Positions 10,186 through 44,578 of a DNA stretch of 44,579 nucleotides are shown here, in pieces. The position numbers and the translations under genes are program-made. Origin of the DNA: an uncultured Candidatus Saccharibacteria bacterium. Lineage in GTDB: Bacteria; Patescibacteriota; Minisyncoccia; Phycocordibacterales; Phycocordibacteraceae. The stretch spans positions 1 through 44,579 of the forward strand of contig CAYJLK010000006.1 of assembly GCA_964371445.1 (NCBI GenBank). Reading direction: 5' to 3'. The notes beneath the pieces were generated by a model, which was given only the letters and a program-made list of their open reading frames with translations, was not told the DNA's origin and ran no database searches. Within the stretch, counting starts at the first letter, position 1. Every line of letters starts with the position of its first letter.

Positions 10186-10376
10186 ATCCGAAGAATGAAC
10201 GAAGAACTCTTTGAGCTCGCAAAGGACAACGACCTAAGTCTTGACGAAGCGCAGGAGGTCCAAGATCTCGCCGATGAACTTAGTGTAGACATAGACGATG
10301 CGTATGAGATCTGGGAGGCGCAGTAGAGCAGCACAGCAGAAACGGCGACCACATGGATCGCCGTTAGCGCTTTGAC

Positions 10377-10958
10377 TTAGCTCTTCAGACTCGCGATGGC
10401 TTCACTGGCCTCGCTCTTTGTAAGACTGTCGATATTCGCCATCCAACTCTCCCTTTGATCATTCGGAGCGCCCAAAAGGAGCGTCTTCAGATAATCTAGC
10501 TGTTTAAGCGTCGCTGGCTCGTGCGTCTCGTCTTGGGCTATGGCATACGTCTCGCCGGGTTGTCCCTGTGCGTCCTCCAGCCGCATGACATCTAGGGTCT
10601 TGCACGCTGAATTGATGGCCGACATGAGCGCGCCATTGAGAGAGGAGTAAAGAGCCCTGTCGATGCCCTTGTTGAGCCGAGACAGGGCCGTGGACCCGTG
10701 TCCGAGCCCAATCGGCTTGCCATCCATACGAAGCTCGCAAGTAACTGCGATAAGTCCGGGCGTCTTAAGTGCCGACATAGTGCCATGATCCGGAGAGAAC
10801 GAGGCGGAGAGGCTGTATTTTGCCTGACACAGCTTGGCGAGCATCTGACGGACTGGATGCGTCGCGTCCTGGGTGTCCATCGCCTTCTCCCGCATCTGTT
10901 GCATCGGATGCGGCTGATAAGGAGAGCGGACCGGACGAGGTTTGTAAGTTGTTTGCAT
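10377..10958 (-). CDS. Hypothetical protein (start codon ambiguous)
   Basis: 193-aa ORF with protein-like composition. The C-terminal stretch is ATLKQLDYLKTLL...SLTKSEASEAIASLKS. Alternative in-frame Met codons include M61 at 10778. The 5' 194 nt overlap the upstream SymE-like ORF in another frame. Confidence 0.55.
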   Translation of the reverse strand: MQTTYKPRPVRSPYQPHPMQQMREKAMDTQDATHPVRQMLAKLCQAKYSLSASFSPDHGTMSALKTPGLIAVTCELRMDGKPIGLGHGSTALSRLNKGIDRALYSSLNGALMSAINSACKTLDVMRLEDAQGQPGETYAIAQDETHEPATLKQLDYLKTLLLGAPNDQRESWMANIDSLTKSEASEAIASLKS

Positions 10959-11118
10959 GGTTAACGATTCTTAAGGTGATAACGCCCCTCTGGTAGACGA
11001 CCTCTATGGGTGCGCCTATAGCGAAGCCCATGGTAGCTAGCAGTTGATTCGCCAGCTTTACCATCGGTGTTCGATCGGTCCCCGGGGCGCGGGTGACGGT
11101 AATTCGCTTGGTGGTCAT
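10765..11118 (-). CDS. SymE/AbrB-fold (SpoVT-AbrB-like) toxin-family protein
   Basis: The N-terminal RITVTRAPGTDRTPMVKLANQLLATMGFAIGAPIEVVYQRGVITLRI fits the SymE pattern (R.ltV...P.i.L.G.WL..aGF..G..v.V....G.i.L). The C-terminal ~60 aa are low-complexity and overlap the next ORF. Confidence 0.5.
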   Translation of the reverse strand: MTTKRITVTRAPGTDRTPMVKLANQLLATMGFAIGAPIEVVYQRGVITLRIVNHANNLQTSSGPLSLSAASDATDAGEGDGHPGRDASSPSDARQAVSGKIQPLRLVLSGSWHYVGT

Positions 11119-11414
11119 ACGACCTTCTCCACCTGTTTTTTGTGGAACAGTAGAACGCTGCGGGGATAGCGCATCTGTACTTCTCCCTTGTCATTCTTCA
11201 TCTCTATCACGGTGACGGAGCGGAACGCCTTCTCACCGCGCTTCACTCGGTAGCCGTAGTTAGCCCAACAGATAAAGGGCATAGCGTCACAGCTGGGGTC
11301 AAAGGATTCGGCGCACTCGTCACCGTATCTCTCCCGGACCTGTTCGCGCACAAGCTCGTACGTCTTCTCCGAACCACGGTATGGGCTCAGGAGCTTCTCT
11401 TGAATTGACTGCAT
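11115..11414 (-). CDS. ArdC-N (DUF1738)-like small ssDNA-binding / anti-restriction-type protein
   Basis: 99-aa ORF. FICWANYGYRVKRGEKAF resembles the F..W...G..VkKGEK core of the ArdC N-terminal domain. An ATGA stop/start overlap with the SymE-like ORF suggests translational coupling. Confidence 0.45.
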   Translation of the reverse strand: MQSIQEKLLSPYRGSEKTYELVREQVRERYGDECAESFDPSCDAMPFICWANYGYRVKRGEKAFRSVTVIEMKNDKGEVQMRYPRSVLLFHKKQVEKVV

Positions 11415-11873
11415 GATGATCTGAAAGCACGCTCGCTTCGACTAGCTGCGAGCAAGAACTACTCGGTGCTGATGAATAATGATTAAAGTTCTTCATCCTC
11501 TGAGTCGTAGGCCGGTTGGGGGGGTGGACACTTCACCTCCTCCTCAGATCGAACCTCCTCTCTAAGTACTGGACCTGAGCCCGGCTGGGACGATTTCTCC
11601 ATCGCGCGTCACATACAGAACGAAATAGAAGTACCTCCCCTAGGCCGAGGATTCTCGATGGTCAAAAAATATTTCTGCGCAAAAAACTCTATAAAAAGGT
11701 AGTGCTTATCTAAAAAATGTTAACGATACAAAGATTCCGCAAGCTCTTACCAGAACCTGACAGAAGTAACCTCTCCGAGGTAGAGGTTAAAAGGATTAAA
11801 TATGCCGGGTATGGCTTTGCCAGTGCCACATTCGACCAGGGGCTAAGAAAGCGTAACCAGTAACACCCCCAGT

Positions 11874-11901
11874 TTGCACATGGAATCGAAAGGTTCATAC
11901 T
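11874..11901 (+). promoter_or_regulatory. Candidate sigma70-like promoter giving a (near-)leaderless mRNA for the 70-aa ORF
   Basis: TTGCAC (11874-11879), a 16-nt spacer, then CATACT (11896-11901). The ATG at 11909 lies only 7 nt past the -10 box and no Shine-Dalgarno is present. Confidence 0.3.
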
Positions 11902-11908
11902 GTGGGAC

Positions 11909-12121
11909 ATGGCAGAGAAAATAGAAGCAACCACTACAGTGGTAGCCACACCGAATGAGACTACCGTTGCAGTCCGCGTGCTCAATACATTTGTCGATAC
12001 CGTTATGGAGGACACTGATCTTGTGACTGTAGGGGCGCGTCTCAAGACAGCTATCATTGACCGTAACGATCTTTCCGAAGCGACGCTCCGGACGGCTATG
12101 TTCGGCGATAGCAATACATGA
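11909..12121 (+). CDS. 70-aa hypothetical protein, translationally coupled to the downstream ABC ATPase
   Basis: Sequence is MAEKIEATTTVVATPNETTVAVRVLNTFVDTVMEDTDLVTVGARLKTAIIDRNDLSEATLRTAMFGDSNT. An ATGA overlap at 12118-12121 joins it to the next ORF. No known motif. Confidence 0.5.
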   Translation: MAEKIEATTTVVATPNETTVAVRVLNTFVDTVMEDTDLVTVGARLKTAIIDRNDLSEATLRTAMFGDSNT

Positions 12122-29491: not shown

Positions 29492-30907
29492 ATGGAAAAG
29501 CACTCATTTAATGGAAAAATCCTCATCATAGGATGCGGGAGTATTGGGCAGGGCGTGATACCGCTTCTGTTGAAGCATTTTACTATCACACCGGATCGCA
29601 TGGCGATAGTGACTGCGGACAATCGTGGCGAGAATGTCGCCAAGGAATACGGAATACCGTTCGTCATCGATCCTCTGCTTGAGCACAACTATCAGGACAT
29701 TGTGAAGCAGTATGTCGGCCCGGGTGATTACATCGTGAACGTTTCCGTTGATGTCTCATCGGCGGCGCTCATCGAATATTGCCTCCGCAACAAAATATTC
29801 TACATCGACACTGTCGTTGAACCATGGCTCGGTTATTACACTGATCCATCTCTTTCGGTTTCGGATCGCTCGAACTATGCGCTCCGCGAGCAGGCTTTGG
29901 CACTTCGCACGCTCGATCTCGGTGGTCCGCACACCACGGCCATTATCGCGCACGGCGCGAATCCCGGTCTCGTTTCTCATTTCGTGAAGGAAGCCATTCT
30001 TAATGTCGCACGGGACACCGGTCGCACGACGGAGGTGCCGAAGACGCGCGAGGCTTGGGCGCGCCTCGCGAAGGAGCTTGGCATCAAGGTCATTCATATT
30101 GCTGAACGTGATACACAGGTCTCTCCTATACCCAAGAAAATCGGCGAATTCGTGAATACCTGGTCCATCGACGGCTTCCACTCTGAGAGCTGTCAGCCAT
30201 CCGAAATGGGGTGGGGGACACACGAGAAGACCGTTCCGGCTGACGGGCGCGAACATGACTTCGGCTCCAAGTGCGCCATCTATCTCGAGAAGCCGAGCTT
30301 CATGGTGAAGACGCGGAGCTGGACGCCGACCGCGAAGGCGCAGCACGGCTGGGTCGTGACGCATCATGAGTCCATCTCTATCGCCGATTATTTCACGCTC
30401 TTTGAAGACGGGAAGGCTGTGTATCGGCCGACAGTGCACTATGCTTATCACCCGTGCGACGGTGCGGTGCTCTCCCTCGACGAACTTGCAGCCAATAACG
30501 GCGAACTGCAGAAGGAACAGCGTCTCATCAATAGCGAGGTGCTACCGGGCGGCGTCGACGAGCTCGGTGTCCTCCTTATGGGTCACGCGAAAAACGCGTA
30601 CTGGTATGGCTCGCGCCTCTCGATCGACGAAGCACGCAAAATCGCGCCGCACAACAACGCGACCAGCCTCCAGGTAACCTCGAGCATTGTCGGGGCGATG
30701 GCGTGGGCGCTCCAGAATCCGACCAAGGGCATCGTGGATGCCGACGAGATTGATCATGAGGTTCTCATGAATGTCGCGCGCCCGTATCTCGGCGAGATGA
30801 TCGGCGAGTACACCGATTGGACACCGGTCCAAGGTCGCGGGAAGCTTTTCCCCGAGACGTTTGACGCCGAGGATCCGTGGCAGTTCGAGAACTTCAGGGT
30901 GTCCTAA
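29492..30907 (+). CDS. hss: Homospermidine synthase (saccharopine-dehydrogenase-like fold)
   Basis: ATG at 29492. MEKHSFNGKILIIGCGSIGQGVIPLLLKHF is the characteristic N-terminus. Length is 471 aa. The upstream 240 codons of the 711-aa track ORF are antisense to the glycerate kinase gene. Confidence 0.85.
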   Translation: MEKHSFNGKILIIGCGSIGQGVIPLLLKHFTITPDRMAIVTADNRGENVAKEYGIPFVIDPLLEHNYQDIVKQYVGPGDYIVNVSVDVSSAALIEYCLRNKIFYIDTVVEPWLGYYTDPSLSVSDRSNYALREQALALRTLDLGGPHTTAIIAHGANPGLVSHFVKEAILNVARDTGRTTEVPKTREAWARLAKELGIKVIHIAERDTQVSPIPKKIGEFVNTWSIDGFHSESCQPSEMGWGTHEKTVPADGREHDFGSKCAIYLEKPSFMVKTRSWTPTAKAQHGWVVTHHESISIADYFTLFEDGKAVYRPTVHYAYHPCDGAVLSLDELAANNGELQKEQRLINSEVLPGGVDELGVLLMGHAKNAYWYGSRLSIDEARKIAPHNNATSLQVTSSIVGAMAWALQNPTKGIVDADEIDHEVLMNVARPYLGEMIGEYTDWTPVQGRGKLFPETFDAEDPWQFENFRVS

Positions 30908-31433
30908 GGCTTCGCGGGCAGAGTTTCTTGCAGTACGGCTGCGCATAGCGGTCGAGACCCCAATGCCCGGCGACGCGGTGGGCGAGCATGATGCCAAGCG
31001 CGAGCATGATGAGCGTCGGGTTGACGCTCACGGTGCCGGCAAGGAGGAAGTTGAACGCCATGAAGAAGGCGAAGAAGGCGGCAGTCCTCGTGCAGAGACC
31101 GACGATGAGCCCGAGTCCTATCAGTATCTCTCCGACGACGACGGCGTTTGACCAGACCATGACGTTCGGGAGTACGGCGCTCTGGAGGAACGAGGCGTAC
31201 CACTGGTAGACGTCTGGGTGAGCGCCGACCGTTTTGCTGAGCGCTCCTTGGACGAAGCCTTGGAGCGCGGCGCCTGCTTCGCTACCGAACCACGCTGGAC
31301 TCGCGACCTTCGCCCACCCGGCGATGAGGAACTCGTAGCCAAGGTAGAGGCGGACGAGGAACCAGAGCGGAGCGCTTTTCTTGCTGGTGAAGAGAGAATG
31401 AGCGAGAGCGGATTGTTCAATGGTGTATTTCAT
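30894..31433 (-). CDS. DoxX-family membrane protein
   Basis: 179 aa with four TM helices. The N-terminal LWFLVRLYLGYEFLIAGWAKV is typical of DoxX. Confidence 0.75.
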   Translation of the reverse strand: MKYTIEQSALAHSLFTSKKSAPLWFLVRLYLGYEFLIAGWAKVASPAWFGSEAGAALQGFVQGALSKTVGAHPDVYQWYASFLQSAVLPNVMVWSNAVVVGEILIGLGLIVGLCTRTAAFFAFFMAFNFLLAGTVSVNPTLIMLALGIMLAHRVAGHWGLDRYAQPYCKKLCPRSLRTP

Positions 31434-31501
31434 ACTAGATAGTCTAGAGGAAGAAACGCGAAAAGGAAGTGCCCCTTGGGGAGTACTATTGGAGCATAAG
31501 A

Positions 31502-32435: not shown

Positions 32436-33050
32436 TTACTTTGGTTGCTGCGCACAAAGCTCCCGTATCGCTTCAATCGGATTACCGCTCTGCAGTTTCG
32501 CTGCGTCTAAGAGTTCCCAAGCACGTTTGAGACCGGGTAGCTCTCGCTCTTTGGCGAGAACGCGGTCAGTCTTTTCTTTTCCCCACAAGTAAAGCAGACC
32601 GGCTTCGGTGAATTTATTTATGATGAGGTGGTCCCGGGTGGCGAAGTCTTCGGTGCTAAATGCTTTCTGCACCGCGTCCCAAATCTTATCCGCGAGCGCG
32701 TCATTCTCCGGGAATAGGAAAAAGACATGGCAATACTCGTGGATGAGCGTAGCAAGCACGTCCTGATAGTCCGACTTTATGTGCACTGTGAGCGGGTCGG
32801 AGAATGGAGTAAACGTTCCTCTCGGGTGTACCACATACGCCGGAGTTTGATTCGGGAATTTAAATCCTAGCGAGGCATAGTACTCAAGCACTGCGGCCGC
32901 CTGTTCCCACTCTTTCTCGAGTTCCGCGCAGAAGGTGTACCCTTCGGTTATCTCTGCATCGGTCAGCATGACACCAGACGCAAGCGACAAGCTTGCATCA
33001 TATACGGGGACATATTTGAGCAGTATCTTTTGGGCGGATTTGGTTGCCAT
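32436..33050 (-). CDS. HExxH-motif protein (putative zinc metallopeptidase; candidate leader peptidase or immunity factor)
   Basis: 204-aa ORF with LIHEYCHVFF. It is the last gene of the YcaO arm and starts 11 nt past the hairpin tail. Confidence 0.65.
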   Translation of the reverse strand: MATKSAQKILLKYVPVYDASLSLASGVMLTDAEITEGYTFCAELEKEWEQAAAVLEYYASLGFKFPNQTPAYVVHPRGTFTPFSDPLTVHIKSDYQDVLATLIHEYCHVFFLFPENDALADKIWDAVQKAFSTEDFATRDHLIINKFTEAGLLYLWGKEKTDRVLAKERELPGLKRAWELLDAAKLQSGNPIEAIRELCAQQPK

Positions 33051-33060
33051 ATTGCGTTTA

Positions 33061-33105
33061 AGTATAAAAGAAAGGGGGCATCCTGTCGAAAGACAAGGAT
33101 GCCCC
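33061..33105 (-). terminator. Strong hairpin plus U-tract immediately after the micro-ORF (terminator/attenuator)
   Basis: On the minus strand: GGGGCATCCTTGTC-TTTC-GACAGGATGCCCC (one bulge) followed by CTTTCTTTTATACT. It begins 7 nt after the micro-ORF stop. Confidence 0.65.
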
Positions 33106-33111
33106 GCGCCG

Positions 33112-33201
33112 TTACCTCGAGCAACGGTTGCAGCTGGATTGGCAACGAGCTGCCGAAGCCACTTTCACCTTTGCGCGATACGGCTTTCTCTTGATGCGCA
33201 C
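33112..33201 (-). CDS. Candidate RiPP precursor peptide, 29 aa: MRIKRKPYRAKVKVASAARCQSSCNRCSR
   Basis: Not in the ORF track (too short). On the minus strand, the YcaO stop TAA is followed by CGCAGAAAGGAGGTGATCTAA and then GTG. This puts a consensus AAAGGAGGTGA Shine-Dalgarno with its GGAGG core 8 nt before the GTG at 33201. The C-terminal 10 residues hold 3 Cys and 3 Ser (4 Ser in the whole peptide). A hairpin follows. Confidence 0.55.
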   Translation of the reverse strand: MRIKRKPYRAKVKVASAARCQSSCNRCSR

Positions 33202-33222
33202 TTAGATCACCTCCTTTCTGCG

Positions 33223-35445
33223 TTATGCAACGAAATGTGGAACGGCGGGATAGTCTCTCTCCCACCGCAAACCTAGCACTCCTAACCGTGGGTGTCCATA
33301 TGCCTCCGTGGCGTAACCGAAGTTTATCGGAAGCAGGTCCGGGGCGATTGCCCGTATGACATGCAAACCGATATTCGGTCGAGCTGGAGTCATATCAACA
33401 ATCCAGGGATTAACACGGTGTACAGCTTGTGTCACTGACATAACTACTTTTGGTAGCGTAGTCAGTCGTTCAGAGTCAAGGAGCCATTCGACGTGATGCC
33501 TGTATGCCGGATCCGCATACAGCGCTCCATGATCATCAACCGTACCAACGGCTTCAGGCTTGATTCCGCAAGGGTCTCGTTTTGACCACGTGAGCGCCAT
33601 GAGTTCGGCCTCCGCAAAGGCTTTTCTCAAGGCAATCTCGTAGGTTTCGGCCGCCGCCGATCCGGATGACAACGCGGGTTTTTTCCGCATTGAATGGATC
33701 AGAACCACAACGACCGGTACCGTATCGGTCGAGATATCCAATACTGATACTTGATATCCCGCCGATTGCCAGAACCGTAGTCTGTTTCCAATGACTTGGG
33801 TGAGGTACTCGTCCGGAATTGCTCTGACCACCCTCTTCCCGTACCACGTCGTCATCAGAGCATCTCGCTCGATTAGTTCCAGCGTTGCGGACTGCACAGC
33901 GGTTTCCTTGCTCGAATGCACGGCGACCCCGTTTGAACTCGCCCAGATACAAGGTAGTCGCGAGAGTCGGTGCTGAATACCGCGTTGATAATAAACCGCA
34001 TCGACCGGAATATTCATCGAGCTGCCGTCGACGTGTTTTTTGCCCACCACCCATTGCCAATTTACGTCCGGATCGAAGACGGAAAGTTCATGTTGGAACA
34101 TGACTTGCTGCCCCTTCATGATTGGATAGATGTCATACGGATTCAGCCACTCATCATTCCGAATACTCACTGCCTTTTTCACGTTCCATGAAGCATAGAA
34201 CATGCTGTCTGGTACGTATCGTTCCCACGCCTCAGCAAGTACTTTGAGATGCGCTTCTTCCCTCGACGTGCCTGTGGAAAAGGCGTTGCCAGTCCATTTC
34301 CGCTCTTCCTTCCTTTTTGTCGACACGACATATTGCGCCGAACCGACGTAGGGGGGGAAGTGGTAGCTACCCCTACCAATCTTGTCGACAGTTACGTTTC
34401 GGACGGGACCATGCGGAGCAAGAAGATATTTCTGCAAATGAGCGAGTGCGACTCCTTTCGGAGCCGGCGCTGCTTTCTTTGCGGGGATTCCAGCTATGAT
34501 CGCAGTTAGGACCGCTTGCTTCGGGTAGGATAGTTGGAGGAACTTGGCAAGTACTCTGTCATTGTAACCGCCGTACTCGACAACCCCAATGCCTTGCTCG
34601 GCACTGAACACATAGGCGTTTTGAGCCATATGTCCAGCTTCGATCAACAGATGCCGATAGCTCCGATTCGAATACTTCTTCGCCGCACGTAGCATATCCG
34701 CCGCGACGAACACAACGAGCGAGCTGTTGAACAAGAGGTGGTCGTCTTCAAGAGCCGCTTGGAGCTCAACTTCGTCCAAATGATCCTGAATCTGTCCCAG
34801 CGTTCCATCATGTCTGCGGTACTCGTATATTCCTTTTCTCAAGGTCGCCGTCTCTTTCAAGACTGCAACCATGATACTCATTGGATACAGACCGCCTCCT
34901 GATGGCACGCTTCTTGATTCCGCTCGACCGTACATTGCTTCCAACAATCCCGATACCTGTCGGTCCGAAAATCCAGCCTGATCGAAATTCCGATCCGATT
35001 TCCTCTTCTTCAACAGTTCGAGGAAGGGCGATTCATTTCGTACAAGAGATATTGTTTTTGCGGCGGCATGCAGTTGAACGTCTTTGGTCTTGGCGAGATG
35101 CGCCAGCGAACGAGGACTGACTACGTGGGGGTAGACCATCGGATTAGCCGAGCCGAGATGGAATGCAGTGAAGATATTGCTGCTGTCTATCAAGACCCCG
35201 GCCCGCAGTAATCGGCTGATAATCCGCCGAACAAGTTTCGCAGCAACATCTCCCTGCAACATTTCCACGATTTCTTCAATGGAATCGTGTCCGGTGCAAC
35301 ACTTAAGTATTTTCAAGGTCGCACCGATGTTTCCTTGGAACTCGATAAGTTCACTTTCACCCAGGAAGGTTATGGCGTTCTTGCCGGACTGGTACCCGTA
35401 GAACCTTACTAACGGATGTTTCTCTGACATGATATTTTCTCCCAA
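33223..35445 (-). CDS. Fusion protein: RRE-like winged helix + SagB/ThcOx-type FMN dehydrogenase + YcaO cyclodehydratase
   Basis: Residues ~40-100 (IGATLKILKCCTGHDSIEEIVEMLQGDVAAKLVRRIISRLLRAGVLI) look PqqD/RRE-like. SagB hallmarks are KRKSDRNF, PSGGGLYP and YRHLLIEAGHMAQN. YcaO hallmarks are STGTSREEAHLKVLAEAWERY, SSNGVAVHSSKETAVQSATLELIERDALMTTWY and SGSAAAETYEIALRKAFAEAE. Confidence 0.9.
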   Translation of the reverse strand: MGENIMSEKHPLVRFYGYQSGKNAITFLGESELIEFQGNIGATLKILKCCTGHDSIEEIVEMLQGDVAAKLVRRIISRLLRAGVLIDSSNIFTAFHLGSANPMVYPHVVSPRSLAHLAKTKDVQLHAAAKTISLVRNESPFLELLKKRKSDRNFDQAGFSDRQVSGLLEAMYGRAESRSVPSGGGLYPMSIMVAVLKETATLRKGIYEYRRHDGTLGQIQDHLDEVELQAALEDDHLLFNSSLVVFVAADMLRAAKKYSNRSYRHLLIEAGHMAQNAYVFSAEQGIGVVEYGGYNDRVLAKFLQLSYPKQAVLTAIIAGIPAKKAAPAPKGVALAHLQKYLLAPHGPVRNVTVDKIGRGSYHFPPYVGSAQYVVSTKRKEERKWTGNAFSTGTSREEAHLKVLAEAWERYVPDSMFYASWNVKKAVSIRNDEWLNPYDIYPIMKGQQVMFQHELSVFDPDVNWQWVVGKKHVDGSSMNIPVDAVYYQRGIQHRLSRLPCIWASSNGVAVHSSKETAVQSATLELIERDALMTTWYGKRVVRAIPDEYLTQVIGNRLRFWQSAGYQVSVLDISTDTVPVVVVLIHSMRKKPALSSGSAAAETYEIALRKAFAEAELMALTWSKRDPCGIKPEAVGTVDDHGALYADPAYRHHVEWLLDSERLTTLPKVVMSVTQAVHRVNPWIVDMTPARPNIGLHVIRAIAPDLLPINFGYATEAYGHPRLGVLGLRWERDYPAVPHFVA

Positions 35446-35556
35446 GAAGAATGTTTCAAGGACAAATTTCTGAAAATCAGCGTAGCATAATTTTTTGAAT
35501 AATCAACCCGGCATAAAACTCAGGAATGGGCGCCTTGGTAGTACAATACAGGGACG

Positions 35557-36579
35557 ATGATGCCGCTTGATAGGAACGAGAGTTATTGGATGTTGGACGA
35601 CGAACTCCTGGCCGCAGTGCGCGCGCCGGGCGCGCGCGAGCTCTCTACCTATCCGGACTATGACGAGTTGAAGAGCGCACTTGCAACGTATGCAGGCGTT
35701 GCTCCCGAGAATATACTCGTCACCCCTGGCTCTGACGCGGCGATAGAGCATATCGCACGCGCGTATGCGGGGAGTGGTGGGGGAGTGATACTGCCGGTGC
35801 CGACCTTCTACGGTTACGAATCTATCCTCGAGCGCGTCGGTGCGCAGGTCATTCCCGTTACGTATGAAGAGCGGAATGGTCGTTTCGTGTTCCCGCTCGC
35901 ACGAACGCTCGAGGCGCTCGCGAGTGGCACGGCAAAGGCGCTCTTCCTCTGTCATCCGAACAATCCACTCGGTTGTCCGCTATCGAGCGAAGACATTTCG
36001 TCGCTCGTCGCGGCGGCGCGGGGAAGCGGGACGCTCATCGTCTCTGACGAAGCCTATTTCGAATTTTCGTCCGGTGCTTCATTCCTGCCGCATCTCGCCG
36101 AACTACCGAATCTCATCGTTCTCCGTTCGCTCTCAAAAGCGTTTGCGCTCTCGGGTGCACGTGTCGGGTACGCGATAGCCTCTGCGGATATCATACAAAA
36201 GGTGGGAAAGCTCATGCTCCCGTGGCCGGTCGCGCATATAAGCGTTGCCGCCGCGCTCGCTCTCATCTCGCGGGCAGACAAGGTAAAAGTACGGCGAGAA
36301 TCAGTCATTGTAGCGCGTGGACATTTCTTAGAGGCGCTCCGTGCGGTCTCTCACGTGACGGCGTATTCATCGGAGACTAATTTCATTCTGGTACGCGTTC
36401 CTGATGCCGCGCGAGTCCGCGACGCGCTTCTTGCACAGGGTATCCGCGTCGCACTCGGCTCATCGATGAGTCGATTCCCGGAGGCGAGAGCGCTCCTGCG
36501 GGACACTCTGCGTATCGCCATCCCCGCCCCAGAATCCGAGGTATCCTGTATCGAGTCGCTACGAAGGATATTGCATTAA
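35557..36579 (+). CDS. Class I/II PLP-dependent aminotransferase (HisC / CobD-decarboxylase-like)
   Basis: 340 aa. Contains ILVTPGSDAAIE, CHPNNPLG and SDEAYFEF, with the PLP-lysine motif RSLSKAFALSGARVGY. Confidence 0.85.
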   Translation: MMPLDRNESYWMLDDELLAAVRAPGARELSTYPDYDELKSALATYAGVAPENILVTPGSDAAIEHIARAYAGSGGGVILPVPTFYGYESILERVGAQVIPVTYEERNGRFVFPLARTLEALASGTAKALFLCHPNNPLGCPLSSEDISSLVAAARGSGTLIVSDEAYFEFSSGASFLPHLAELPNLIVLRSLSKAFALSGARVGYAIASADIIQKVGKLMLPWPVAHISVAAALALISRADKVKVRRESVIVARGHFLEALRAVSHVTAYSSETNFILVRVPDAARVRDALLAQGIRVALGSSMSRFPEARALLRDTLRIAIPAPESEVSCIESLRRILH

Positions 36580-36607
36580 TTACAGATATGTGTTATTATA
36601 AATTTCT

Positions 36608-38158
36608 ATGAGTCTGACAAAAACGGTGCTGAAGAAAAAGCCACTCATCGTCGTTGGCGGGAAATTTTCTTCGCCTGCGCACTTCTTTAATGCCCTGCGC
36701 GCGCGCAAGAGTGCGGATTGGTTCCGAGCGGAAAAGAATCATCTCCTCGCTCTTTTCAAACGCATATCGCTCGAAGTGCCGGCATACCGACATTTCCTTC
36801 GTGAGAGCGGTGTACGTCGCGATACCATCCGTACGAGAGAAGACCTTGCTTCGGTGCCCGCAGTGACCAAGAAGAATTATCTGCAGAAGCATCCGTCCAC
36901 GAGTCTGTTATGGCATGGCTCCATGCGTTCGCCACAGGTGCTCACGTCCACGTCCGGTTCGACCGGGAAGCCGACGTATTTCTCTCGTTCGCACGAGATT
37001 GACGAACATTCATCGTTTGTTCACGAACTCATTTTTCGCACGAGCTCGCTGAAGAAGGATAAATCCACACTCGTCATCGTCTGTTTCGGTATGGGTGTGT
37101 GGATCGGTGGGCTCATCACATACCAAGCCTTCGAGCTTATGGGTCGGCGCGGCTACCCGGTCTCCATCCTCACTCCCGGAATCAATAAGACCGAGATATT
37201 GAAGGCGCTGACCGATCTCGCGCCGCACTACGAGCAGATCATCCTCGCCGGCTATCCGCCGTTCCTGAAGGATGTTATCGACGAGGCGCTCGCACAGGGC
37301 ATCACGTTCGCCAAGCACCGCATGATGCTTCTCTTTGCCGCAGAGGCATTCACCGAGAATTTCCGCGACCATCTCGCTAAGAAAGTCGGGATTGAAAATC
37401 CACTCACCGATGCAGTAAATATCTACGGGAGCGCTGACATCGGTACGATGGCGTTCGAGACCCCGTTTTCCATACTCGCGCGCCGGCTCGCGATGAAAGA
37501 CAATAAACTTTTCGCCGACATATTCGGCAACATCACGAAGACGCCGACGTTCGCACAGTACATACCGGAGTTTGTTTCGTTTGAAGCGCCGAACGGCGAG
37601 ATACTCATATCCGGGGATAGCGCGCTTCCGCTCCTGCGCTACTCCATCGGAGATCATGGCGGGGTCTACACCTTCCGCGAGCTCGTGGAGCGATACAGGG
37701 TGCACGGTATCGACCTTATGAAAGAAGCGCAGGCTGCTGGAATCCGCAAGCATGTGTATGAATTGCCGTTCGTGTACGTCTTTGAACGCATTGACTTGGC
37801 GACGACACTCTATGGCCTCCAGGTGTACCCCGAGACGATTAAAGAGGTCTTGCTTAAGAAGCACTTCGTCGACCACCTGACAGGCAAGCTTACGCTCATC
37901 ACGAAATTCGACGACAATCAAGACCAGTATCTGGAAATCAATCTGGAGCAGAAACCGAAAAAGGAAGCGAGCAAGGCGTTCGCATCGGAACTGATTGCTG
38001 AAATCGTTAAGAGTTTGCGCGAGAAGAATTCTGAATTCCGAGAACTATCCAACTTCCTCGGGAAACGCGCAGAGCCGAAGCTCGTCTTCTGGCCGTATGA
38101 GGACTCGCTCTACTTCAAGCCGGGCATAAAGCAGTCGTGGGTAGTGCGGCAGTCGTAA
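36608..38158 (+). CDS. PaaK / coenzyme F390 synthetase-type adenylate-forming ligase
   Basis: 516 aa. The N-terminal VPAYRHFLRESGV...REDLASVPAVTKKNY is followed by the AMP motif TSTSGSTGKPTYF. Confidence 0.8.
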   Translation: MSLTKTVLKKKPLIVVGGKFSSPAHFFNALRARKSADWFRAEKNHLLALFKRISLEVPAYRHFLRESGVRRDTIRTREDLASVPAVTKKNYLQKHPSTSLLWHGSMRSPQVLTSTSGSTGKPTYFSRSHEIDEHSSFVHELIFRTSSLKKDKSTLVIVCFGMGVWIGGLITYQAFELMGRRGYPVSILTPGINKTEILKALTDLAPHYEQIILAGYPPFLKDVIDEALAQGITFAKHRMMLLFAAEAFTENFRDHLAKKVGIENPLTDAVNIYGSADIGTMAFETPFSILARRLAMKDNKLFADIFGNITKTPTFAQYIPEFVSFEAPNGEILISGDSALPLLRYSIGDHGGVYTFRELVERYRVHGIDLMKEAQAAGIRKHVYELPFVYVFERIDLATTLYGLQVYPETIKEVLLKKHFVDHLTGKLTLITKFDDNQDQYLEINLEQKPKKEASKAFASELIAEIVKSLREKNSEFRELSNFLGKRAEPKLVFWPYEDSLYFKPGIKQSWVVRQS

Positions 38159-38183
38159 ACGGGGTGCGTGGTAGGATGAGGGG

Positions 38184-39305
38184 ATGAAACCGGAACAACT
38201 CGATCGTTCACGAGAGTCTTTTTCTGTATTTCGCGACCGTCTGCAGCCGTCGAAGGTCATTGACCGCTACGATCTTCTTTTAGAAGATCTTTTTCTCATC
38301 CGTAACCCGCGTTTTAAATTCATCAAGGACCATACGAGCGAGGTGCGGGCGTTCACCGAGGAGTACCGAGCCGACAAGCCGCTTGAAGACGTGGGGGAGT
38401 GGTTCTATTTCCCGTGGAACACGACGCTCGTGCACTATCTGCCGCACGAGGAGCATCAGGAGATACGTACCGCGCGCAATCGCAATATCATCACGAAAGA
38501 GGAACAGGAAAAATTGTACGGTCTCACGGTCGCCTATGCGGGACTCTCGGTCGGCAGCCACGGCGCGCTCACCTTTGCGCTCATGGGCGGGGCACGGCGT
38601 ATCAAGATCGCTGATCCCGATGAAGTCTCGCCCTCGAACCTGAACCGCATCCGCTTCGACTTCCTCGCCCTCGGGCGCAAGAAGACTGATCTCGTGCGCG
38701 AATATGTCTATCAACTGAATCCTTATGCCGAGATTGAGACGTTTGATACCGGCGTCACCGACGAGAACATGGACGCCTTCCTTTCTGGCGTAGATGTCCT
38801 CGTTGAAGAGACCGACAATTTGGAAATAAAAATACGGCTCCGGCTCGCGGCGCGCGAGCGCAGCATCCCCGTCGTTATGGCAACCGACAACGGCGACAAC
38901 ATTATCGTCGAAGTAGAGCGCTTCGATACCGACAAAACAAAACAGCTTTTCAACGGCGTTATCGGTGACGTGAGCGTGGAGATGTTCAAGTCCTTCACCC
39001 CCTCCGACTTGCCCAAGCTCGCGACAAAGATTGCTGGTCCGCACCTCGTTACCGAGCGCATGATGAGTTCGCTCCTTCAAGTCGGGCGCGAGATCTACTC
39101 GTGGCCGCAGCTCGGCGACGCCGCGACACTCTCGGGCGTCGCAATCGCCTATATCTTGAAGCGACTTGCGCTCGGACAGGCGGTGAATGAAGAGAAATGC
39201 GAGATTAGCCTGGACGCGCTCATTGATCCAGAGCATCATGCACCGCACGTGAAAGAGGCTCGGGAGACGGCACGGGCAGAATTCTTGGCGACGCTCGGTC
39301 TCTAG
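38184..39305 (+). CDS. ThiF/E1-like adenylyltransferase-family protein
   Basis: 373 aa. Nucleotide loop VAYAGLSVGSHGA, IKIADPDEVSPSNLNRI and LVEETDNLEIK. A ~110-aa N-terminal extension is present. Confidence 0.85.
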   Translation: MKPEQLDRSRESFSVFRDRLQPSKVIDRYDLLLEDLFLIRNPRFKFIKDHTSEVRAFTEEYRADKPLEDVGEWFYFPWNTTLVHYLPHEEHQEIRTARNRNIITKEEQEKLYGLTVAYAGLSVGSHGALTFALMGGARRIKIADPDEVSPSNLNRIRFDFLALGRKKTDLVREYVYQLNPYAEIETFDTGVTDENMDAFLSGVDVLVEETDNLEIKIRLRLAARERSIPVVMATDNGDNIIVEVERFDTDKTKQLFNGVIGDVSVEMFKSFTPSDLPKLATKIAGPHLVTERMMSSLLQVGREIYSWPQLGDAATLSGVAIAYILKRLALGQAVNEEKCEISLDALIDPEHHAPHVKEARETARAEFLATLGL

Positions 39306-39307
39306 CT

Positions 39308-40378
39308 ATGGATGGAGCGGAGAGAGAAAAGATAACGAAGATACTCACGGCTGCGGCTGCGGCTCCCTCAGGTGATAATTCTCAGCCGTGGCGTTTTGTC
39401 GTCAAAGGGAGAACAATAGAATTCCACTACATCCCTGAAAGAGACCACCCCATCTTGAACTACGAGGAGGGCGGTACTCTGATCGCGCTTGGCGCCGCGA
39501 TACAGAACGCTGAGCTTGAAGCGCGCGCTGAGCGGTATGCGCCGCAGACGGAGTATCGCGAGAGTGGCTCGTGTGTCGCCGTGATGACCCTCAATGAGGG
39601 CGGTAGCCTGGACGAAGATTCCGCCTCACTCCAAAGAGCGATACGAGCACGGCACTCCAACAGAAAAGCGTACACGAAGGCTCCACTCTCGCCGGAAGTA
39701 CGATTAGCGCTCTTGAGCGCGTCTCAGGAGGAGGATACGGGTCTGAAACTGTCACTGGTGGAATCAATCGACACGATGCGGATACTCTCGCGCGCGCTCA
39801 CGACCATGGAAGAAACGGCGCTTGGGAATAAAAATCTCCACGAATTCTTTTTCAGCGAGATACTCTGGTCTGCTGAAGAGAATCGCGCAGGGAAACAGGG
39901 GCTCTACCTCAAGACGCTCGAGCTCCCGCCGCCGGCACAAGCGATGTTCCGGCTCCTGAAGCGTTGGGGTTTTGCGAGGCCCTTAGCCGCGATTGGTTTC
40001 CCGAAGATGGTGGCGCAGACAAATGCGAAGCAGAACGCATCGGCATCGGCATTCGGCGTCATCACCGCAAAGTGGTCGCGGCGCGCTACCTACCTTGATG
40101 TAGGGAAGATGATGGAACGTCTATGGCTTCGTGCTACCGCACAGGGATTATCGATGCAGATCGTGACCGGCATTACCTTCCTCGCACGTTCGCTCCAGAC
40201 GCCTGAGGTAGCGCGACTCTTCAGTCCACAAGAACAAGAGAGGATTATCGCCGCACATGCGATAATAAAAAAGAATGTGGATGATACGCGCGAACCAATA
40301 CTCATATTCCGTATCGGCACGGGTGAGAGTCCGACGGAGGTAAGTTATCGTCGTCCGCCTGAAATCGTCTTCAACTAA
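39308..40378 (+). CDS. Tandem nitroreductase-fold protein (Acg-like architecture)
   Basis: 356 aa. Contains ILTAAAAAPSGDNSQPWRF and RARHSNRKAY. The start lies 2 nt after the ThiF-like stop. Confidence 0.85.
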   Translation: MDGAEREKITKILTAAAAAPSGDNSQPWRFVVKGRTIEFHYIPERDHPILNYEEGGTLIALGAAIQNAELEARAERYAPQTEYRESGSCVAVMTLNEGGSLDEDSASLQRAIRARHSNRKAYTKAPLSPEVRLALLSASQEEDTGLKLSLVESIDTMRILSRALTTMEETALGNKNLHEFFFSEILWSAEENRAGKQGLYLKTLELPPPAQAMFRLLKRWGFARPLAAIGFPKMVAQTNAKQNASASAFGVITAKWSRRATYLDVGKMMERLWLRATAQGLSMQIVTGITFLARSLQTPEVARLFSPQEQERIIAAHAIIKKNVDDTREPILIFRIGTGESPTEVSYRRPPEIVFN

Positions 40379-40380
40379 TC

Positions 40381-41955
40381 ATGCAAGCCTTTTCCAATCT
40401 CGACCTCCTCTCTGTCGGTGTCGCCGTTGCGGGTATCGGTTTGCTCGGTTTCGTTATCCTTTTCAATAACACCCGTTCGACGACGAATCGGTCTTTTTTC
40501 TATTTCACCCTGGTCACGGTCTGTTGGAGCATTCTCAATTATTCCTATTATCAGTTGCCGGCGGGCGATACCGCCCTGTGGCTCCTGCGGGGAGTCATGT
40601 GTTTTGCGACGTGGCATGCATTCACTTTTTTCCACCTGGCGTCTGTATTTCCAGAAGAGAATTACCGCCAGCCGCTCTCTCATACCTACGTGCTCATACC
40701 GATTGTCGGCGCAGTGTCGCTCCTGACGCTGACGCCGTATGTGTTTGAACGGATAAATGTGATTGGCGCCGGCGGGGCTATCGGTGGGGTAGAGAACGGC
40801 TCTGCTATCCCCGTGTTCGGGATGCTGGTGTTCTTCCTTATCATTTCGGGTATTTGGAAATTAATACGTAAGACGATGAAAGCGTCGAGAGAGCAACGGC
40901 GTCCGTATTCGCTGATGCTCTCTGGAATGATACTGACGTTTGTATTGCTCCTCACCTTCAACTTCTTCATCCCAGCAGTGTTCAATAATCCTCGCTTCAT
41001 ACCGCTCGGAGCCGTCTTCCTGCTCCCGTTCGTCATCATGACGTCGTACGCTATTTATCGTCATCATCTTTTCAATCTGAAAGTCGCGACCACGGCGTTC
41101 CTTGGGTTCATGGTGACCGTCTTCACATTCGTAAATGTCCTGTATTCGACCGATACGAGCGGAGTGGTCATCAACATCACTGCGTTTCTTATCGTGCTTA
41201 TCGGGAGTATTCGTATCGTGCGGGACACGCTCAATCTCAAGAAACTTACGGAAGAGCTTCAGGCGACCAATGAGCGGCAGGAAGGACTCATCCACTTCAT
41301 CGGGCACGAAGTGAAGGGATTCCTGACCAAGGCGGAAGGCGCATTCGCCTCGCTCTCTGAGGGCGACTTCGGGACATTGCCGAAAGAGCTGGAGCCGCTT
41401 GTTGAACACTCGCTTGTCGAGACGCGTCAGGGGTCGGCCTCGGTTGCGGCAATTCTGAAAGCGGCGAACCTGAAGAAGGGGACGGTCTCTTATACGAAGG
41501 CGCCGTTCGATCTGAAAGCGCTCGTCGCGGAGTCGGTCGAGAAAGAGAAGCTCGCGGCAGAGCAGAAAGGGCTCGCCCTCTCTTTCACTGCCGCCGACGC
41601 CTCGTACCAGATGACGGGCGACAAGGAGCAGATACTCGACCACGTGCTCCGCAATCTCATCCAGAACGCTATCAACTATACGCCGTCGGGCTCCGTCGTT
41701 ATCTCGTTACACAAAGAGAATGGGAAGATCATGTTTGCGGTAAAGGATTCCGGCATCGGCATCACTGACGAAGACAAGAAGCGGCTCTTCACCGAGGGTG
41801 GTCACGGCAAGGATTCGCAGCGGGTGAACGTCCACTCCACCGGCTACGGCCTCTACATCGCCAAAAGCATCGTCGAAGCGCACGGCGGTACCGTCCGTGC
41901 CGAGAGTGAGGGGGCGGGGAAGGGTGCAACATTCATCGTCGAATTCCCTGCGTAG
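40381..41955 (+). CDS. Membrane sensor histidine kinase (multi-TM N-terminus, HisKA + HATPase_c), no cognate response regulator in window
   Basis: Six to seven TM helices over aa 1-265. The H-box is FIGHEVKGFL, the N-box is LIQNAINYT, G1 is KDSGIGI and G2 is GYGLYIAKSIVEAHGG. Confidence 0.9.
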   Translation: MQAFSNLDLLSVGVAVAGIGLLGFVILFNNTRSTTNRSFFYFTLVTVCWSILNYSYYQLPAGDTALWLLRGVMCFATWHAFTFFHLASVFPEENYRQPLSHTYVLIPIVGAVSLLTLTPYVFERINVIGAGGAIGGVENGSAIPVFGMLVFFLIISGIWKLIRKTMKASREQRRPYSLMLSGMILTFVLLLTFNFFIPAVFNNPRFIPLGAVFLLPFVIMTSYAIYRHHLFNLKVATTAFLGFMVTVFTFVNVLYSTDTSGVVINITAFLIVLIGSIRIVRDTLNLKKLTEELQATNERQEGLIHFIGHEVKGFLTKAEGAFASLSEGDFGTLPKELEPLVEHSLVETRQGSASVAAILKAANLKKGTVSYTKAPFDLKALVAESVEKEKLAAEQKGLALSFTAADASYQMTGDKEQILDHVLRNLIQNAINYTPSGSVVISLHKENGKIMFAVKDSGIGITDEDKKRLFTEGGHGKDSQRVNVHSTGYGLYIAKSIVEAHGGTVRAESEGAGKGATFIVEFPA

Positions 41956-41984
41956 TTTCTCGAGTAGAGTGATATTATAATTAC

Positions 41985-43769
41985 ATGCATGTAGAAAAGA
42001 AAAAGCCGGCGCGCGTCGGGGCAGTGCTCCGCGCGTATAGCTCTGCCGCGTCTGCCTATCCGCGTCTCTTCAGTGCGGTCGTTCTCTCGACGATGACTAT
42101 CGTGGCGGGCGAGATTGCCGCGCCGCTCTATTTGAGGAAGTTCGTCGACGTGCTTGCCGGCGGTACTGCCGTGCCGCATGTCCTTACTACCATCGCCTGG
42201 ATACTGGGGGCATATGCGCTCGTCAATCTCGTCGCGTGGACGGGTCAGCGAGTGCGCATGGTGACCATCGGGCGACTTGAGGCACGCACGATGGCCGATC
42301 TCTACGACAAGGCGTTTACCTATCTTCTCGGGCATGCGCACGAATTTTTCATTTCCAATTTCACCGGCACCTTAACGCGCCGCGTGACGCGCTATGCGCG
42401 TTCCTTCGAATCGGTGTTCGACAACCTCATCATGAATCTCTTCCCGGCGCTCCTCTTTCTCGTCGGCGTGGTGGTGGTCTTGTCGCTTCGCAATATCTGG
42501 CTCGGCGCGGGGTTATTCGTCCTGACTGTTCTCTTTATTTATCTGCAATACCGGATGGTGATGTGGCTCCAGCCGCTACGGACCCGCCGTACTGAAGAAG
42601 ACAGTCGTATGACTGGCGCGCTTTCTGATGCAGTATTGAACCACTCGACGATCACCTCCTTTGCGGCATTGCCGTATGAACGTTCCTACTTCAGCAAAGT
42701 GACGGACGGATGGCGCACCGCGACCCAGAGAGCGATGGATGCCTATGCGTTTATCTATGGCATCCAGGGCGCGTTCGCTCTCTTTATCGAGATTGCCATT
42801 CTCGGCGGGACCGCCTTTCTCTGGACGAAAGGTCTTCTCACTATTGGCGATTTCGTATTGGTGCAAATCTACATCATTGGTCTCTTAAATCAGGTCTGGG
42901 GTATCGGCCGCAATATGCGCCAACTGCACGACTCCTTCACCGAAGCGACCGAGATGCTCGACATTATGGAACTGCCGCATGAGGTGCAGGACGTTGCTGG
43001 CGCGAAACCGCTCTCGGTGCCAAATGGCGCCATTGCCTTTGACCGCGTGCGCTTCGAATATCAGGGTACGCACACCGTACTAGACGGCTTCGACCTTCGT
43101 GTACTGCCGCATGAAAAGATTGCGCTCATTGGCTCGTCGGGGGCGGGGAAGACGACGCTCGCCAAGCTTCTCCTGCGTCTCTACGACGTGAACGGCGGCG
43201 CGATACGCATCGACGGGAAAGATATCGCGCGAGTAACGCAGGAGAGCTTACGGAAGGCGATAGCCTTTGTCCCGCAGGAGCCGATGCTCTTCCACCGCAC
43301 GCTTATGGAGAATATCCGCTACGGCAGGCAGGGAGCTACCGACGACGAGGTCATTGAGGCGGCTCGTCAGGCGCACTGCCACGAGTTTATTGCGCAGTAC
43401 CCGGAAGGGTACGGGACGCTCGTCGGCGAACGTGGCGTGAAGCTCTCGGGTGGCGAGCGCCAGCGAGTCGCTATCGCGCGCGCTATCCTCAAGGATGCAC
43501 CCATCCTTGTGCTCGACGAGGCGACCTCAAGTCTCGACTCAGAGTCGGAACGCCTTATTCAGGAGGCGCTCCTGCGTTTGATGGAAGGGAAGACCGTTAT
43601 TGCTATAGCGCACCGACTCTCCACGGTGATGCACATGGACCGTCTTATTGTGCTTGAAAAGGGATCGGTCATCCTGTCGGGGACGCACAGCGAACTCCTT
43701 GAACAGGAGAGTAATCTCTATAAGAAGCTCTGGGAGATCCAGGCAGGTGGATTCATCAGGGCGGATTAG
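41985..43769 (+). CDS. ABC exporter, fused permease-ATPase (MsbA/type I exporter fold), no C39 peptidase domain
   Basis: 594 aa. Walker A is GSSGAGKTT, the signature is LSGGERQRVAIARA, Walker B is ILVLDEATS and the H-loop is IAHRLST. Confidence 0.95.
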   Translation: MHVEKKKPARVGAVLRAYSSAASAYPRLFSAVVLSTMTIVAGEIAAPLYLRKFVDVLAGGTAVPHVLTTIAWILGAYALVNLVAWTGQRVRMVTIGRLEARTMADLYDKAFTYLLGHAHEFFISNFTGTLTRRVTRYARSFESVFDNLIMNLFPALLFLVGVVVVLSLRNIWLGAGLFVLTVLFIYLQYRMVMWLQPLRTRRTEEDSRMTGALSDAVLNHSTITSFAALPYERSYFSKVTDGWRTATQRAMDAYAFIYGIQGAFALFIEIAILGGTAFLWTKGLLTIGDFVLVQIYIIGLLNQVWGIGRNMRQLHDSFTEATEMLDIMELPHEVQDVAGAKPLSVPNGAIAFDRVRFEYQGTHTVLDGFDLRVLPHEKIALIGSSGAGKTTLAKLLLRLYDVNGGAIRIDGKDIARVTQESLRKAIAFVPQEPMLFHRTLMENIRYGRQGATDDEVIEAARQAHCHEFIAQYPEGYGTLVGERGVKLSGGERQRVAIARAILKDAPILVLDEATSSLDSESERLIQEALLRLMEGKTVIAIAHRLSTVMHMDRLIVLEKGSVILSGTHSELLEQESNLYKKLWEIQAGGFIRAD

Positions 43770-43780: not shown

Positions 43781-43854
43781 CGCGAGGGACGGGACTTGAA
43801 CCCGCAACCTCCGCCGTGACAGGGCGGCGCTCTAACCAGTTGAGCTACCCCCGC
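43781..43854 (-). tRNA. tRNA-Asp (anticodon GUC)
   Basis: Reverse complement folds as GCGGGGG-TA-GCTC-AACTGGTTA-GAGC-G-CCGCC-CTGTCAC-GGCGG-AGGTT-GCGGG-TTCAAGT-CCCGT-CCCTCGC-G. It is a full cloverleaf with no encoded CCA. Confidence 0.9.
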
Positions 43855-43924: not shown

Positions 43925-43996
43925 GCCGGTGTAGTTCAAGAGTTAGAACGAGGGACTCATAAACCCTAGACGGTGGCGCGACTCCACCCGCCGGCA
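43925..43996 (+). tRNA. tRNA with CAU anticodon (Met or Ile2), atypical D- and T-loops
   Basis: Folds as GCCGGTG-TA-GTTC-AAGAGTTA-GAAC-G-AGGGA-CTCATAA-ACCCT-AGAC-GGTGG-CGCGACT-CCACC-CGCCGGC-A. All four stems pair, apart from an A31/A39 mismatch and one G-U pair. The T-loop is CGCGACT instead of TTCRANN, and the D-loop lacks GG. Confidence 0.65.
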
Positions 43997-44505: not shown

Positions 44506-44578
44506 GCCGAGATAGCTCAGTTGGTAGAGCACGTCCATGGTAAGGACGAGGTCGTCGGTTCAATCCCGACTCTCGGCT
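44506..44578 (+). tRNA. tRNA-Thr (anticodon GGU)
   Basis: Folds as GCCGAGA-TA-GCTC-AGTTGGTA-GAGC-A-CGTCC-ATGGTAA-GGACG-AGGTC-GTCGG-TTCAATC-CCGAC-TCTCGGC-T. This is a canonical cloverleaf. The window ends 1 nt later. Confidence 0.9.

Follow-up and report, generated by a model that had tools for sequence, protein, structure and literature searches.

Here, we describe a 29-codon open reading frame (ORF) and the adjoining gene for a fused SagB-YcaO enzyme in a 44.6-kb stretch of contig CAYJLK010000006.1, referred to below as the window. All coordinates are positions in this window, and the micro-ORF, the enzyme gene and the gene for an HExxH protein that follows them are all read on the minus strand. 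We consider it likely that the micro-ORF is a translated gene and that its product is the substrate peptide of the adjoining enzyme, and we hold with somewhat less confidence that the product carries azoles. The cassette is most likely a minimal system for a linear azol(in)e-containing peptide (LAP), a peptide that is ribosomally synthesized and then modified post-translationally (a RiPP) and is of the type known as thiazole/oxazole-modified microcins (TOMMs), served by a three-domain maturase without an E1-like partner. An unannotated precursor for the adjoining enzyme had been proposed in a preliminary description of this DNA, and our comparisons bear the proposal out: the ORF is conserved, its substitutions follow a coding pattern, and it is gained and lost together with the enzyme.

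The precursor-peptide gene occupies positions 33112–33201 (minus strand), where it begins with a GTG codon 22 nt past the stop of the 735-aa enzyme gene and runs for 29 codons to a TAA, giving the product MRIKRKPYRAKVKVASAARCQSSCNRCSR. Lysine and arginine make up 10 of the 29 residues, and three cysteines and three serines fall within the final 10; the computed isoelectric point (pI) is 11.4 and the unmodified monoisotopic mass is 3352.78 Da. Within this peptide, RIKRKPYRAK forms the putative recognition motif and CQSSCNRCSR the putative end of the core. A Shine-Dalgarno box, AAAGGAGGTGA, lies at 33207–33217 (minus strand), and 8 nt separate its GGAGG core from the GTG. Two copies of the exact 11-mer are present in the window, where 0.01 would be expected by chance, and its AGAAAGGAGGTGAT portion is invariant in the window and in two related loci (L001 and L002) and is also found in a third (L085). 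The GTG frame, its translation, its Lys/Arg/Cys/Ser composition and the strong ribosome-binding site given in the preliminary description were thus all reproduced on the minus strand.

The size of the ORF is in itself no evidence for a gene, since short ORFs are abundant: 179 ORFs of 25 aa or longer fall wholly or partly within a 13-kb stretch around the micro-ORF. This abundance would suit an ORF that arose by chance behind the enzyme gene, in its 3′ untranslated region or terminator, with only the Shine-Dalgarno-like box and the hairpin being functional, as would the finding that the gene callers of L001–L003 (Logan/NCBI loci) called none of the small ORFs. The case for the micro-ORF therefore rests on comparative evidence, and it is the Shine-Dalgarno box together with the conservation and the codon-position pattern that lifts it above chance. 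In the close relatives that were located (L001, L002 and L085), the start, frame and stop are all kept. Two of these carry enzymes that are 72% and 68% identical to that of the window and encode, in the same frame and at the same place, the peptides MRTKRKAYRAKANVMSAARCQSSCNRCSR and VKIKRKPYRAKAKVVSANRCQSSCNRCSR; L085, a fourth member recovered from a metagenome, encodes MRIKRKPYHAKVKVFSANRCQSSCNRCSL. Among these sequences, the differences at codon positions 1/2/3 number 4/3/19, 5/4/13 and 5/3/15, and the ratio of nonsynonymous to synonymous substitution rates (dN/dS) of the micro-ORF is 0.04–0.13, with synonymous sites close to saturation. The excess at third positions and the low dN/dS constitute a coding signature, and the comparison of sequences identifies the micro-ORF as a real, unannotated gene under purifying selection.

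The conservation extends well beyond this clade. A scan of one genome per species yielded distant relatives with full-length enzymes at 27–42% identity, and about 20 of the 28 distant loci with enough downstream sequence contain an ORF of 32–50 aa directly after the enzyme gene. At L003, for example, an enzyme 35% identical to that of the window is followed by MKRKKKNGKVVVIVRPYKGKISTTCLRSGGACPGGGTCGS. Equivalent ORFs are therefore found at distances where the DNA is unalignable, and a profile of the peptides matched nine entries in the protein collection, all of which are named 'hypothetical protein' or are unnamed; no Pfam or NCBIfam family was matched by the peptide or by six of its relatives in library scans. 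These comparative data already argue against a chance ORF, which we regard as very improbable. The preliminary description had proposed that conservation of a short ORF, rather than of the hairpin alone, be sought downstream of homologous SagB-YcaO fusions, and that search returned the ORF.

The distant small ORFs share a basic N-terminus, a common motif and a tail rich in Cys, Ser, Thr and Gly. The family motif can be written as h-x-V-x-V-[RK]-P-Y-[KR], and the RIKRKPYRAK segment of the window aligns onto its x-V-x-V-[RK]-P-Y-[KR] part, the additional N-terminal residues of the family peptides being absent from the window's clade. While the N-terminal motif is conserved family-wide, the number and spacing of the cysteines in the tail vary. 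The C-x3-C-x2-C ending that the preliminary description had expected homologous ORFs to share accordingly holds within the window's own clade only; in the family at large, it is the N-terminal motif that is conserved. RiPP precursors show this leader/core pattern, a conserved N-terminal motif preceding a variable, heteroatom-rich tail, and the peptide thus has the form of a short precursor that adjoins its enzyme and pairs a conserved leader with a Cys/Ser/Thr-rich core. The basic character of the leader is likewise a family trait, as the pI computed for five other family precursors ranges from 9.3 to 10.5.

The linkage between the micro-ORF and the enzyme gene was further revealed by loci in which both are missing. 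When the ORFs of 100 aa or more from 33 loci were clustered, only two conserved protein families emerged, namely the enzyme, present in all 33, and the HExxH protein, present as a DUF2268 type in 19 and as the type found in the window in 5. At L084, whose DNA is 76–77% identical to the window, blastn matches cover 35537–35860 (the start region of an aminotransferase gene) and 32446–33102 (the hairpin and the HExxH gene); between these two blocks, about 230 unrelated nt replace the enzyme gene and the micro-ORF, so that 33103–35536 (minus strand) is missing as a block. L086 is syntenic with L002 downstream, but its homology begins exactly at the hairpin, and a prolyl-tRNA synthetase gene stands upstream instead of the enzyme gene. 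These comparisons indicate that the enzyme gene and the micro-ORF come and go together and, at the sequence level, behave as one unit, whereas the hairpin remains associated with the HExxH gene. The G+C content is 47–54% in the HExxH gene and the enzyme-peptide module, 58–59% on the aminotransferase side and 58–61% at 30000–31500; together with the presence/absence pattern, this lower value fits a horizontally acquired block.

The same observations bear on whether the peptide is modified at all. The micro-ORF might encode a small basic protein that is merely co-transcribed with the enzyme gene and acts unmodified as a regulator, chaperone, immunity factor or metal-, nucleic-acid- or ribosome-binding peptide. 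The pI of 11.4 and the three cysteines, which could bind metal, are in keeping with such a protein, and so is the fact that the modification is itself deduced from sequence, a point that also tells against the substrate assignment. A metal-binding fold would nevertheless be expected to keep its cysteines; the unconserved number and spacing of the cysteines beside a conserved N-terminal motif is the opposite of this and is typical of a leader/core precursor. The strict adjacency to, and co-loss with, an enzyme bearing a peptide-recognition domain argue further against an unmodified protein, for which we see only a slim chance.

The maturase gene spans 33223–35430 (minus strand) and encodes 735 aa in three domains, as delineated by Pfam, NCBIfam and AlphaFold2; the listed TTG start at 35445 is probably wrong, as relatives align from the ATG at 35430. 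At the N-terminus, residues ~1–80 (35191–35430, minus strand) form a domain resembling a RiPP recognition element (RRE). It is followed by a SagB-type flavin mononucleotide (FMN) dehydrogenase domain at residues 145–317 (34480–34998, minus strand; PF00881, Nitroreductase, E 1e-15), which also matches TIGR03605 with 96.3 bits, above the cut-off of 78.4, and by a YcaO cyclodehydratase domain at residues 391–704 (33319–34260, minus strand; PF02624, E 1.4e-40). The matches to PF02624, PF00881 and TIGR03605 confirm the YcaO enzyme with a SagB fusion that had been described upstream of the micro-ORF. The single chain thereby contains a YcaO cyclodehydratase (the D protein of TOMM systems) and a SagB/McbC-type FMN dehydrogenase (the B protein) with its Lys-Tyr pair, namely K252 and Y253, each at least 90% conserved over 90 aligned sequences, which we take to correspond to the pair that is catalytic in TOMM dehydrogenases according to studies of BcerB. 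In the YcaO domain, E400, E403, E518, E521, R522 and E607 are invariant in the same alignment, and these acidic residues and R522 are presumably consistent with the ATP/Mg2+ site of YcaO proteins.

The extent of the family depended strongly on how it was sought. A word-indexed search of a collection of 5.8 billion proteins returned only three other proteins resembling the enzyme, and a profile built from the four sequences still returned only 4 proteins in the same kind of search. An exhaustive search with a hidden Markov model, by comparison, gave at least 541 representatives (clusters at 50% identity) at E ≤ 1e-30, so the word-indexed search under-reports the family and to infer rarity from it would be wrong. 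The top 150 representatives are mostly 700–740 aa long and align end to end. The distant relatives come mostly from metagenome-assembled genomes (MAGs) of Patescibacteria, the Candidate Phyla Radiation (CPR), with single matches in a cyanobacterium, a Clostridia MAG and Mycolicibacterium. A metagenome scan with the three close enzymes returned no relatives; a later scan with the HExxH protein gave L084–L087. The depth of the alignment was equally decisive for structure prediction: AlphaFold2 with an alignment of only 4 sequences gave an unusable model with a predicted local distance difference test score (pLDDT) of 38.7, while the alignment of 90 sequences gave a model with a pLDDT of 94.5 and a predicted template modelling score (pTM) of 0.92.

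In this model, residues 12–77 are placed at pLDDT >90 and comprise three strands (residues 12–16, 19–23 and 28–32) followed by three helices (35–44, 51–57 and 64–77), which is the β3-α3 topology of an RRE. A profile of 40 N-termini, compared with the PDB, gave as its top four matches LynD residues 40–82 (E 0.016), TruD 22–79 (E 0.087), MusD 41–80 (E 0.21) and PqqD (E 0.6), and the Pfam PqqD family matched 5 of the 40 N-termini (best E 6.8e-4), beside other winged-helix families. We assign the domain as RRE-like because these matches, although individually weak, agree with one another and with the modelled fold; it is predicted to bind the peptide. A structure search with the whole model ranked LynD first, over its full length, followed by TruD, BmdC, MusD, archaeal YcaO proteins, ThcOx, McbC and McbD.

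Taken together, these features suggest the following course of events. The peptide would be translated from its own strong ribosome-binding site, and its basic N-terminal segment RIKRKPYRAK may then dock, in strand form, onto the enzyme's N-terminal RRE domain. Using ATP, the YcaO domain would cyclodehydrate Cys20, Cys24 and Cys27, and possibly neighbouring serines, to azolines, which the fused SagB-type FMN dehydrogenase would oxidise to thiazoles or oxazoles. Removal of the leader may fall to the HExxH protein encoded downstream. The cationic product would presumably be exported and biologically active, and it is a matter of speculation that the peptide might bind ribosomes or nucleic acids.

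The YcaO superfamily comprises several chemistries, and the enzyme might accept the peptide as its substrate and yet install another modification (a thioamide, an amidine or a macroamidine) or perform an ATP-dependent cleavage as MusD does, with a nitroreductase-fold domain that does not oxidise azolines. Consistent with this, the structural and sequence matches include MusD (7u58, with YcaO-mediated ATP-dependent peptidase activity) and the thioamidating MJ1094. By both structure and sequence, the YcaO part nevertheless matches the heterocyclases LynD and TruD best, and the fused domain is specifically of the SagB type, scores above its cut-off and conserves the Lys-Tyr pair; such a domain makes sense only if azolines form. 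As for thioamidation, no TfuA-like protein was found among the window neighbours scanned or among the conserved neighbours of the family loci, so that the cassette does not have the make-up of a YcaO-TfuA system. We therefore regard another YcaO chemistry as unlikely, if less so than an unmodified peptide.

Several observations weigh against the assignment of the cassette as an azole-forming system, and three of them also favour another YcaO chemistry. First, neither an E1-like (C) nor an Ocin-ThiF-like (F) domain is present in the fusion or among the conserved neighbours of the 33 loci, and most characterised azoline-forming YcaO proteins need an E1-like or ThiF-like partner. Second, the C-terminus is non-canonical. 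The PxPxP ending that is canonical for azoline-forming YcaO proteins is not present in this enzyme family; the enzyme of the window ends in PAVPHFVA and the family in the consensus PxxPHFFA (also PxxPHF[FV]A), a related C-terminus with nearly invariant Pro, His and Phe. Third, the family tails at L018, L027 and L028 have few or no cysteines. In addition, TIGR03604 (the SagD family) matches the YcaO domain with E 5.9e-43, yet its 147 bits fall short of the curated cut-off of 219, and the sequence matches supporting the RRE are each weak (E 0.016–0.6). No transporter or immunity gene is conserved across the 33 loci. The proposed processing enzyme adds two further points: the HExxH protein of the window type is not detectably a member of DUF2268 by Pfam or hhalign, and in the window's clade its gene also exists without the enzyme gene.

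A hairpin of 13 pairs with one bulge lies at 33075–33105 (minus strand), beginning 6 nt past the TAA of the micro-ORF, and is directly followed by the U-tract CUUUCUUUUA at 33065–33074 (minus strand). The hairpin region has a ΔG of −29.4 kcal/mol and a folding z-score of −4.3 relative to shuffled sequences, and a G+C-rich hairpin with a U-tract resembles an intrinsic terminator, for which termination is predicted; the bulge is probably the reason why it escaped a simple terminator scan. In six homologous sequences, compensatory changes occur at 5 of the 10 consensus pairs. These changes favour an RNA structure over a protein operator, the inverted repeat being less likely to act as the latter when its arms change in sequence yet stay complementary. 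A promoter-like element, TCGACA-17 nt-TATACT (33061–33089, minus strand; 10 of 12 matches), overlaps both the hairpin's 3′ arm and the U-tract, and the six sequences, two of them from loci without YcaO, show no variation in TTCGACA (loop and 3′ arm) or in CTTTTATACTT.

The hairpin and the promoter-like element also precede the HExxH gene at L084 and L086, where YcaO and the micro-ORF are absent, and the hairpin is therefore not a precursor-specific device. The preliminary description had linked a hairpin with a U-tract before the HExxH gene to over-production of the precursor; the structure is real and conserved, as the compensatory pairs attest, but its specificity to the precursor did not hold. 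As judged from the sequence, the promoter-like element probably drives the HExxH gene, and the element as a whole is best read as a terminator or insulator combined with the promoter of that gene, an element that incidentally supplies the 3′ end of the precursor transcript. That the hairpin allows over-production of the precursor nonetheless remains plausible. On L086, a 39-aa frame at 3875–3994 (plus strand; MHLVRRSCNYNCSFCQG...), with the box GAAGGAGG and a C-x4-C-x2-C pattern, overlaps the end of proS and crosses the hairpin upstream of the HExxH gene; it is probably a chance ORF.

The HExxH protein itself (32436–33050, minus strand) comprises 204 aa with HEYCH at residues 104–108 and is a candidate leader peptidase. 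An HExxH protein of about 205 aa follows the precursor in most family loci, and in the CPR loci it belongs to Pfam DUF2268 (PF10026), a family of predicted Zn proteases, with E 1e-20 to 1e-33. For the 204-aa protein of the window, no NCBIfam or PDB sequence match and no Pfam match below E 0.1 was found, and its membership in DUF2268 is unsupported, as hhalign against the CPR DUF2268 set gave only a local match of 36 columns over a strand and the HExxH motif, at a probability of 6%. The window type of the protein was found in the window, L001, L002, L011 and L006, and at L011, a CPR genome, it stands beside the enzyme at 33% identity. HExxH genes without YcaO lie at 605–1219 of L084 and at 4001–4618 of both L086 and L087 (contig Ga0172380_10000258); they follow a prolyl-tRNA synthetase gene or a KTI12-like kinase gene, or adjoin an aminotransferase gene, and the copies at L086 and L087 are 90% identical and about 13 kb apart on one 109-kb contig. 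The occurrence of the window-type gene without the enzyme gene weakens the case for a role as leader peptidase, which the sequence makes a reasonable suggestion at most.

Divergent from the maturase gene, the plus strand at 35557–43769 encodes a HisC/CobD-like aminotransferase, a 516-aa PaaK-like adenylate-forming enzyme, a ThiF-family protein, a nitroreductase, a 7TM sensor histidine kinase and an ABC exporter. A 150-aa ORF at 35503–35955 (minus strand) had been considered as an upstream gene of the cluster and was dismissed as spurious, as it has no family match and lies antisense within the aminotransferase gene (35557–36579, plus strand). The ThiF-family protein and the nitroreductase match the N- and C-terminal halves of an 'Rv1355c family' fusion, and an E1-like protein and a nitroreductase beside YcaO hint at a second peptide-modifying system or at a partner. 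The ThiF-family gene (38184–39305), 3 kb away, was not adopted as the E1-like partner of the maturase, because the records of L001 and L002 contain no ThiF-family match. A DoxX/DoxD-family membrane protein (30894–31433, minus strand), encoded two genes away from the cassette, has a weak match, below the cut-off, to HvfX, a 'Cu-binding RiPP maturation protein' (E 9e-9), and is probably unrelated to the cassette. Further away, the window contains an Rfam LOOT RNA motif (RF03000) at 3754–3884 (plus strand; 70.5 bits against a gathering score of 46.4), and a stretch at 4743–14595 (plus strand) with genes for a 991-aa ResIII helicase-type protein, an 819-aa N6/N4 DNA methylase and an 825-aa SMC/AAA_23 ATPase, which is likely a restriction-modification or defence region. 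Three tRNA genes stand at the window end (43781–43854, minus strand; 43925–43996 and 44506–44578, plus strand).

In its chemistry and logic, the cassette is not a new kind of system but one of the LAP/TOMM natural products. Like microcin B17 (McbABCD), streptolysin S (SagABCD), plantazolicin and klebsazolicin/phazolicin, it has a short precursor with a Cys/Ser/Gly-rich core beside a YcaO protein and a SagB/McbC-type dehydrogenase, followed by a (here putative) protease gene. It differs from them in that the dehydrogenase and YcaO are fused in one chain with an N-terminal RRE, in that the cassette has neither an E1-like C protein (McbB/SagC) nor a conserved exporter or immunity gene, and in its far shorter precursor (29 aa, and 32–50 aa in relatives) with a strongly basic leader. 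The cyanobactin heterocyclases LynD, TruD and PatD, in which RRE, E1-like and YcaO domains form one chain, provide the best full-length structural matches; they carry the RRE at the same position and likewise combine recognition and cyclodehydration on a single polypeptide. Their middle domain is E1-like, whereas here it is a dehydrogenase of the nitroreductase fold, and the precursors of the present family are unrelated to PatE-type peptides and come without PatA/PatG proteases or macrocyclisation. In the ThcOx/CyaGox type of RRE-dehydrogenase fusion, an RRE-like domain is N-terminal to a SagB-type oxidase, as it is here, and ThcOx and BmdC are among the structural matches; that oxidase is separate from YcaO, while in the present enzyme the RRE is the sole recognisable recognition domain of the whole synthetase. 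RRE-Finder reported such RRE-dehydrogenase fusions, with RREs thought to be possibly vestigial (PMC7470986).

The closest precedent lies in the CPR bacteria themselves. A bioinformatic survey described 110 LAP clusters in 93 CPR genomes, 89 of them with a nitroreductase next to YcaO, and these clusters comprise YcaO, a nitroreductase, a peptidase and an adjoining precursor (Sharrar et al. 2020, mBio; PMC7298704). The same kinds of function are encoded in the present cassette, and CPR/Patescibacteria are likewise the source of most relatives of the window's enzyme. In the example given in that study, YcaO and the nitroreductase are encoded by separate genes and the precursor has 84 aa (PMC7298704), in contrast to the fusion and the precursors of 29–50 aa found here; the study describes neither the conserved leader motif nor the RRE nor the non-CPR clade represented by the window. 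A 2015 survey of TOMMs describes C-D fusions, and the passages in which it treats fusions mention no dehydrogenase-YcaO fusion (PMC4603692). In the literature covered, which is incomplete, we found no description of a single-chain RRE-SagB-YcaO synthetase, of basic precursors of 29–50 aa or of their motif.

If the proposed pathway is correct, one enzyme and a 29-residue peptide would form a complete and portable azole-installing system, attractive for peptide engineering with its recognition tag of about 10 residues and its independence from a partner protein, and the family would offer a test of the rule that azoline-forming YcaO proteins need an E1-like or ThiF-like partner. More tentatively, the window may be the founding non-CPR example of a large, uncharacterised family in which one polypeptide, uniting RRE, FMN dehydrogenase and YcaO, makes azole peptides without an E1-like partner on the shortest known LAP precursors (29–50 aa), with recognition depending entirely on a basic strand motif of about 10 residues. 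The thiazole products, small and highly cationic, could then be the main RiPP of ultra-small episymbiotic bacteria and might act on the ribosomes or nucleic acids of hosts or competitors, a possibility drawn from the analogy with klebsazolicin and phazolicin. The secondary metabolism of CPR bacteria is, to our knowledge, almost unknown, and the precursor genes of the family have almost never been called, as the nine matching database entries illustrate; for a gene family widespread in these bacteria, the present analysis provides a testable annotation of the precursor, the recognition motif, the enzyme domains and a candidate peptidase.

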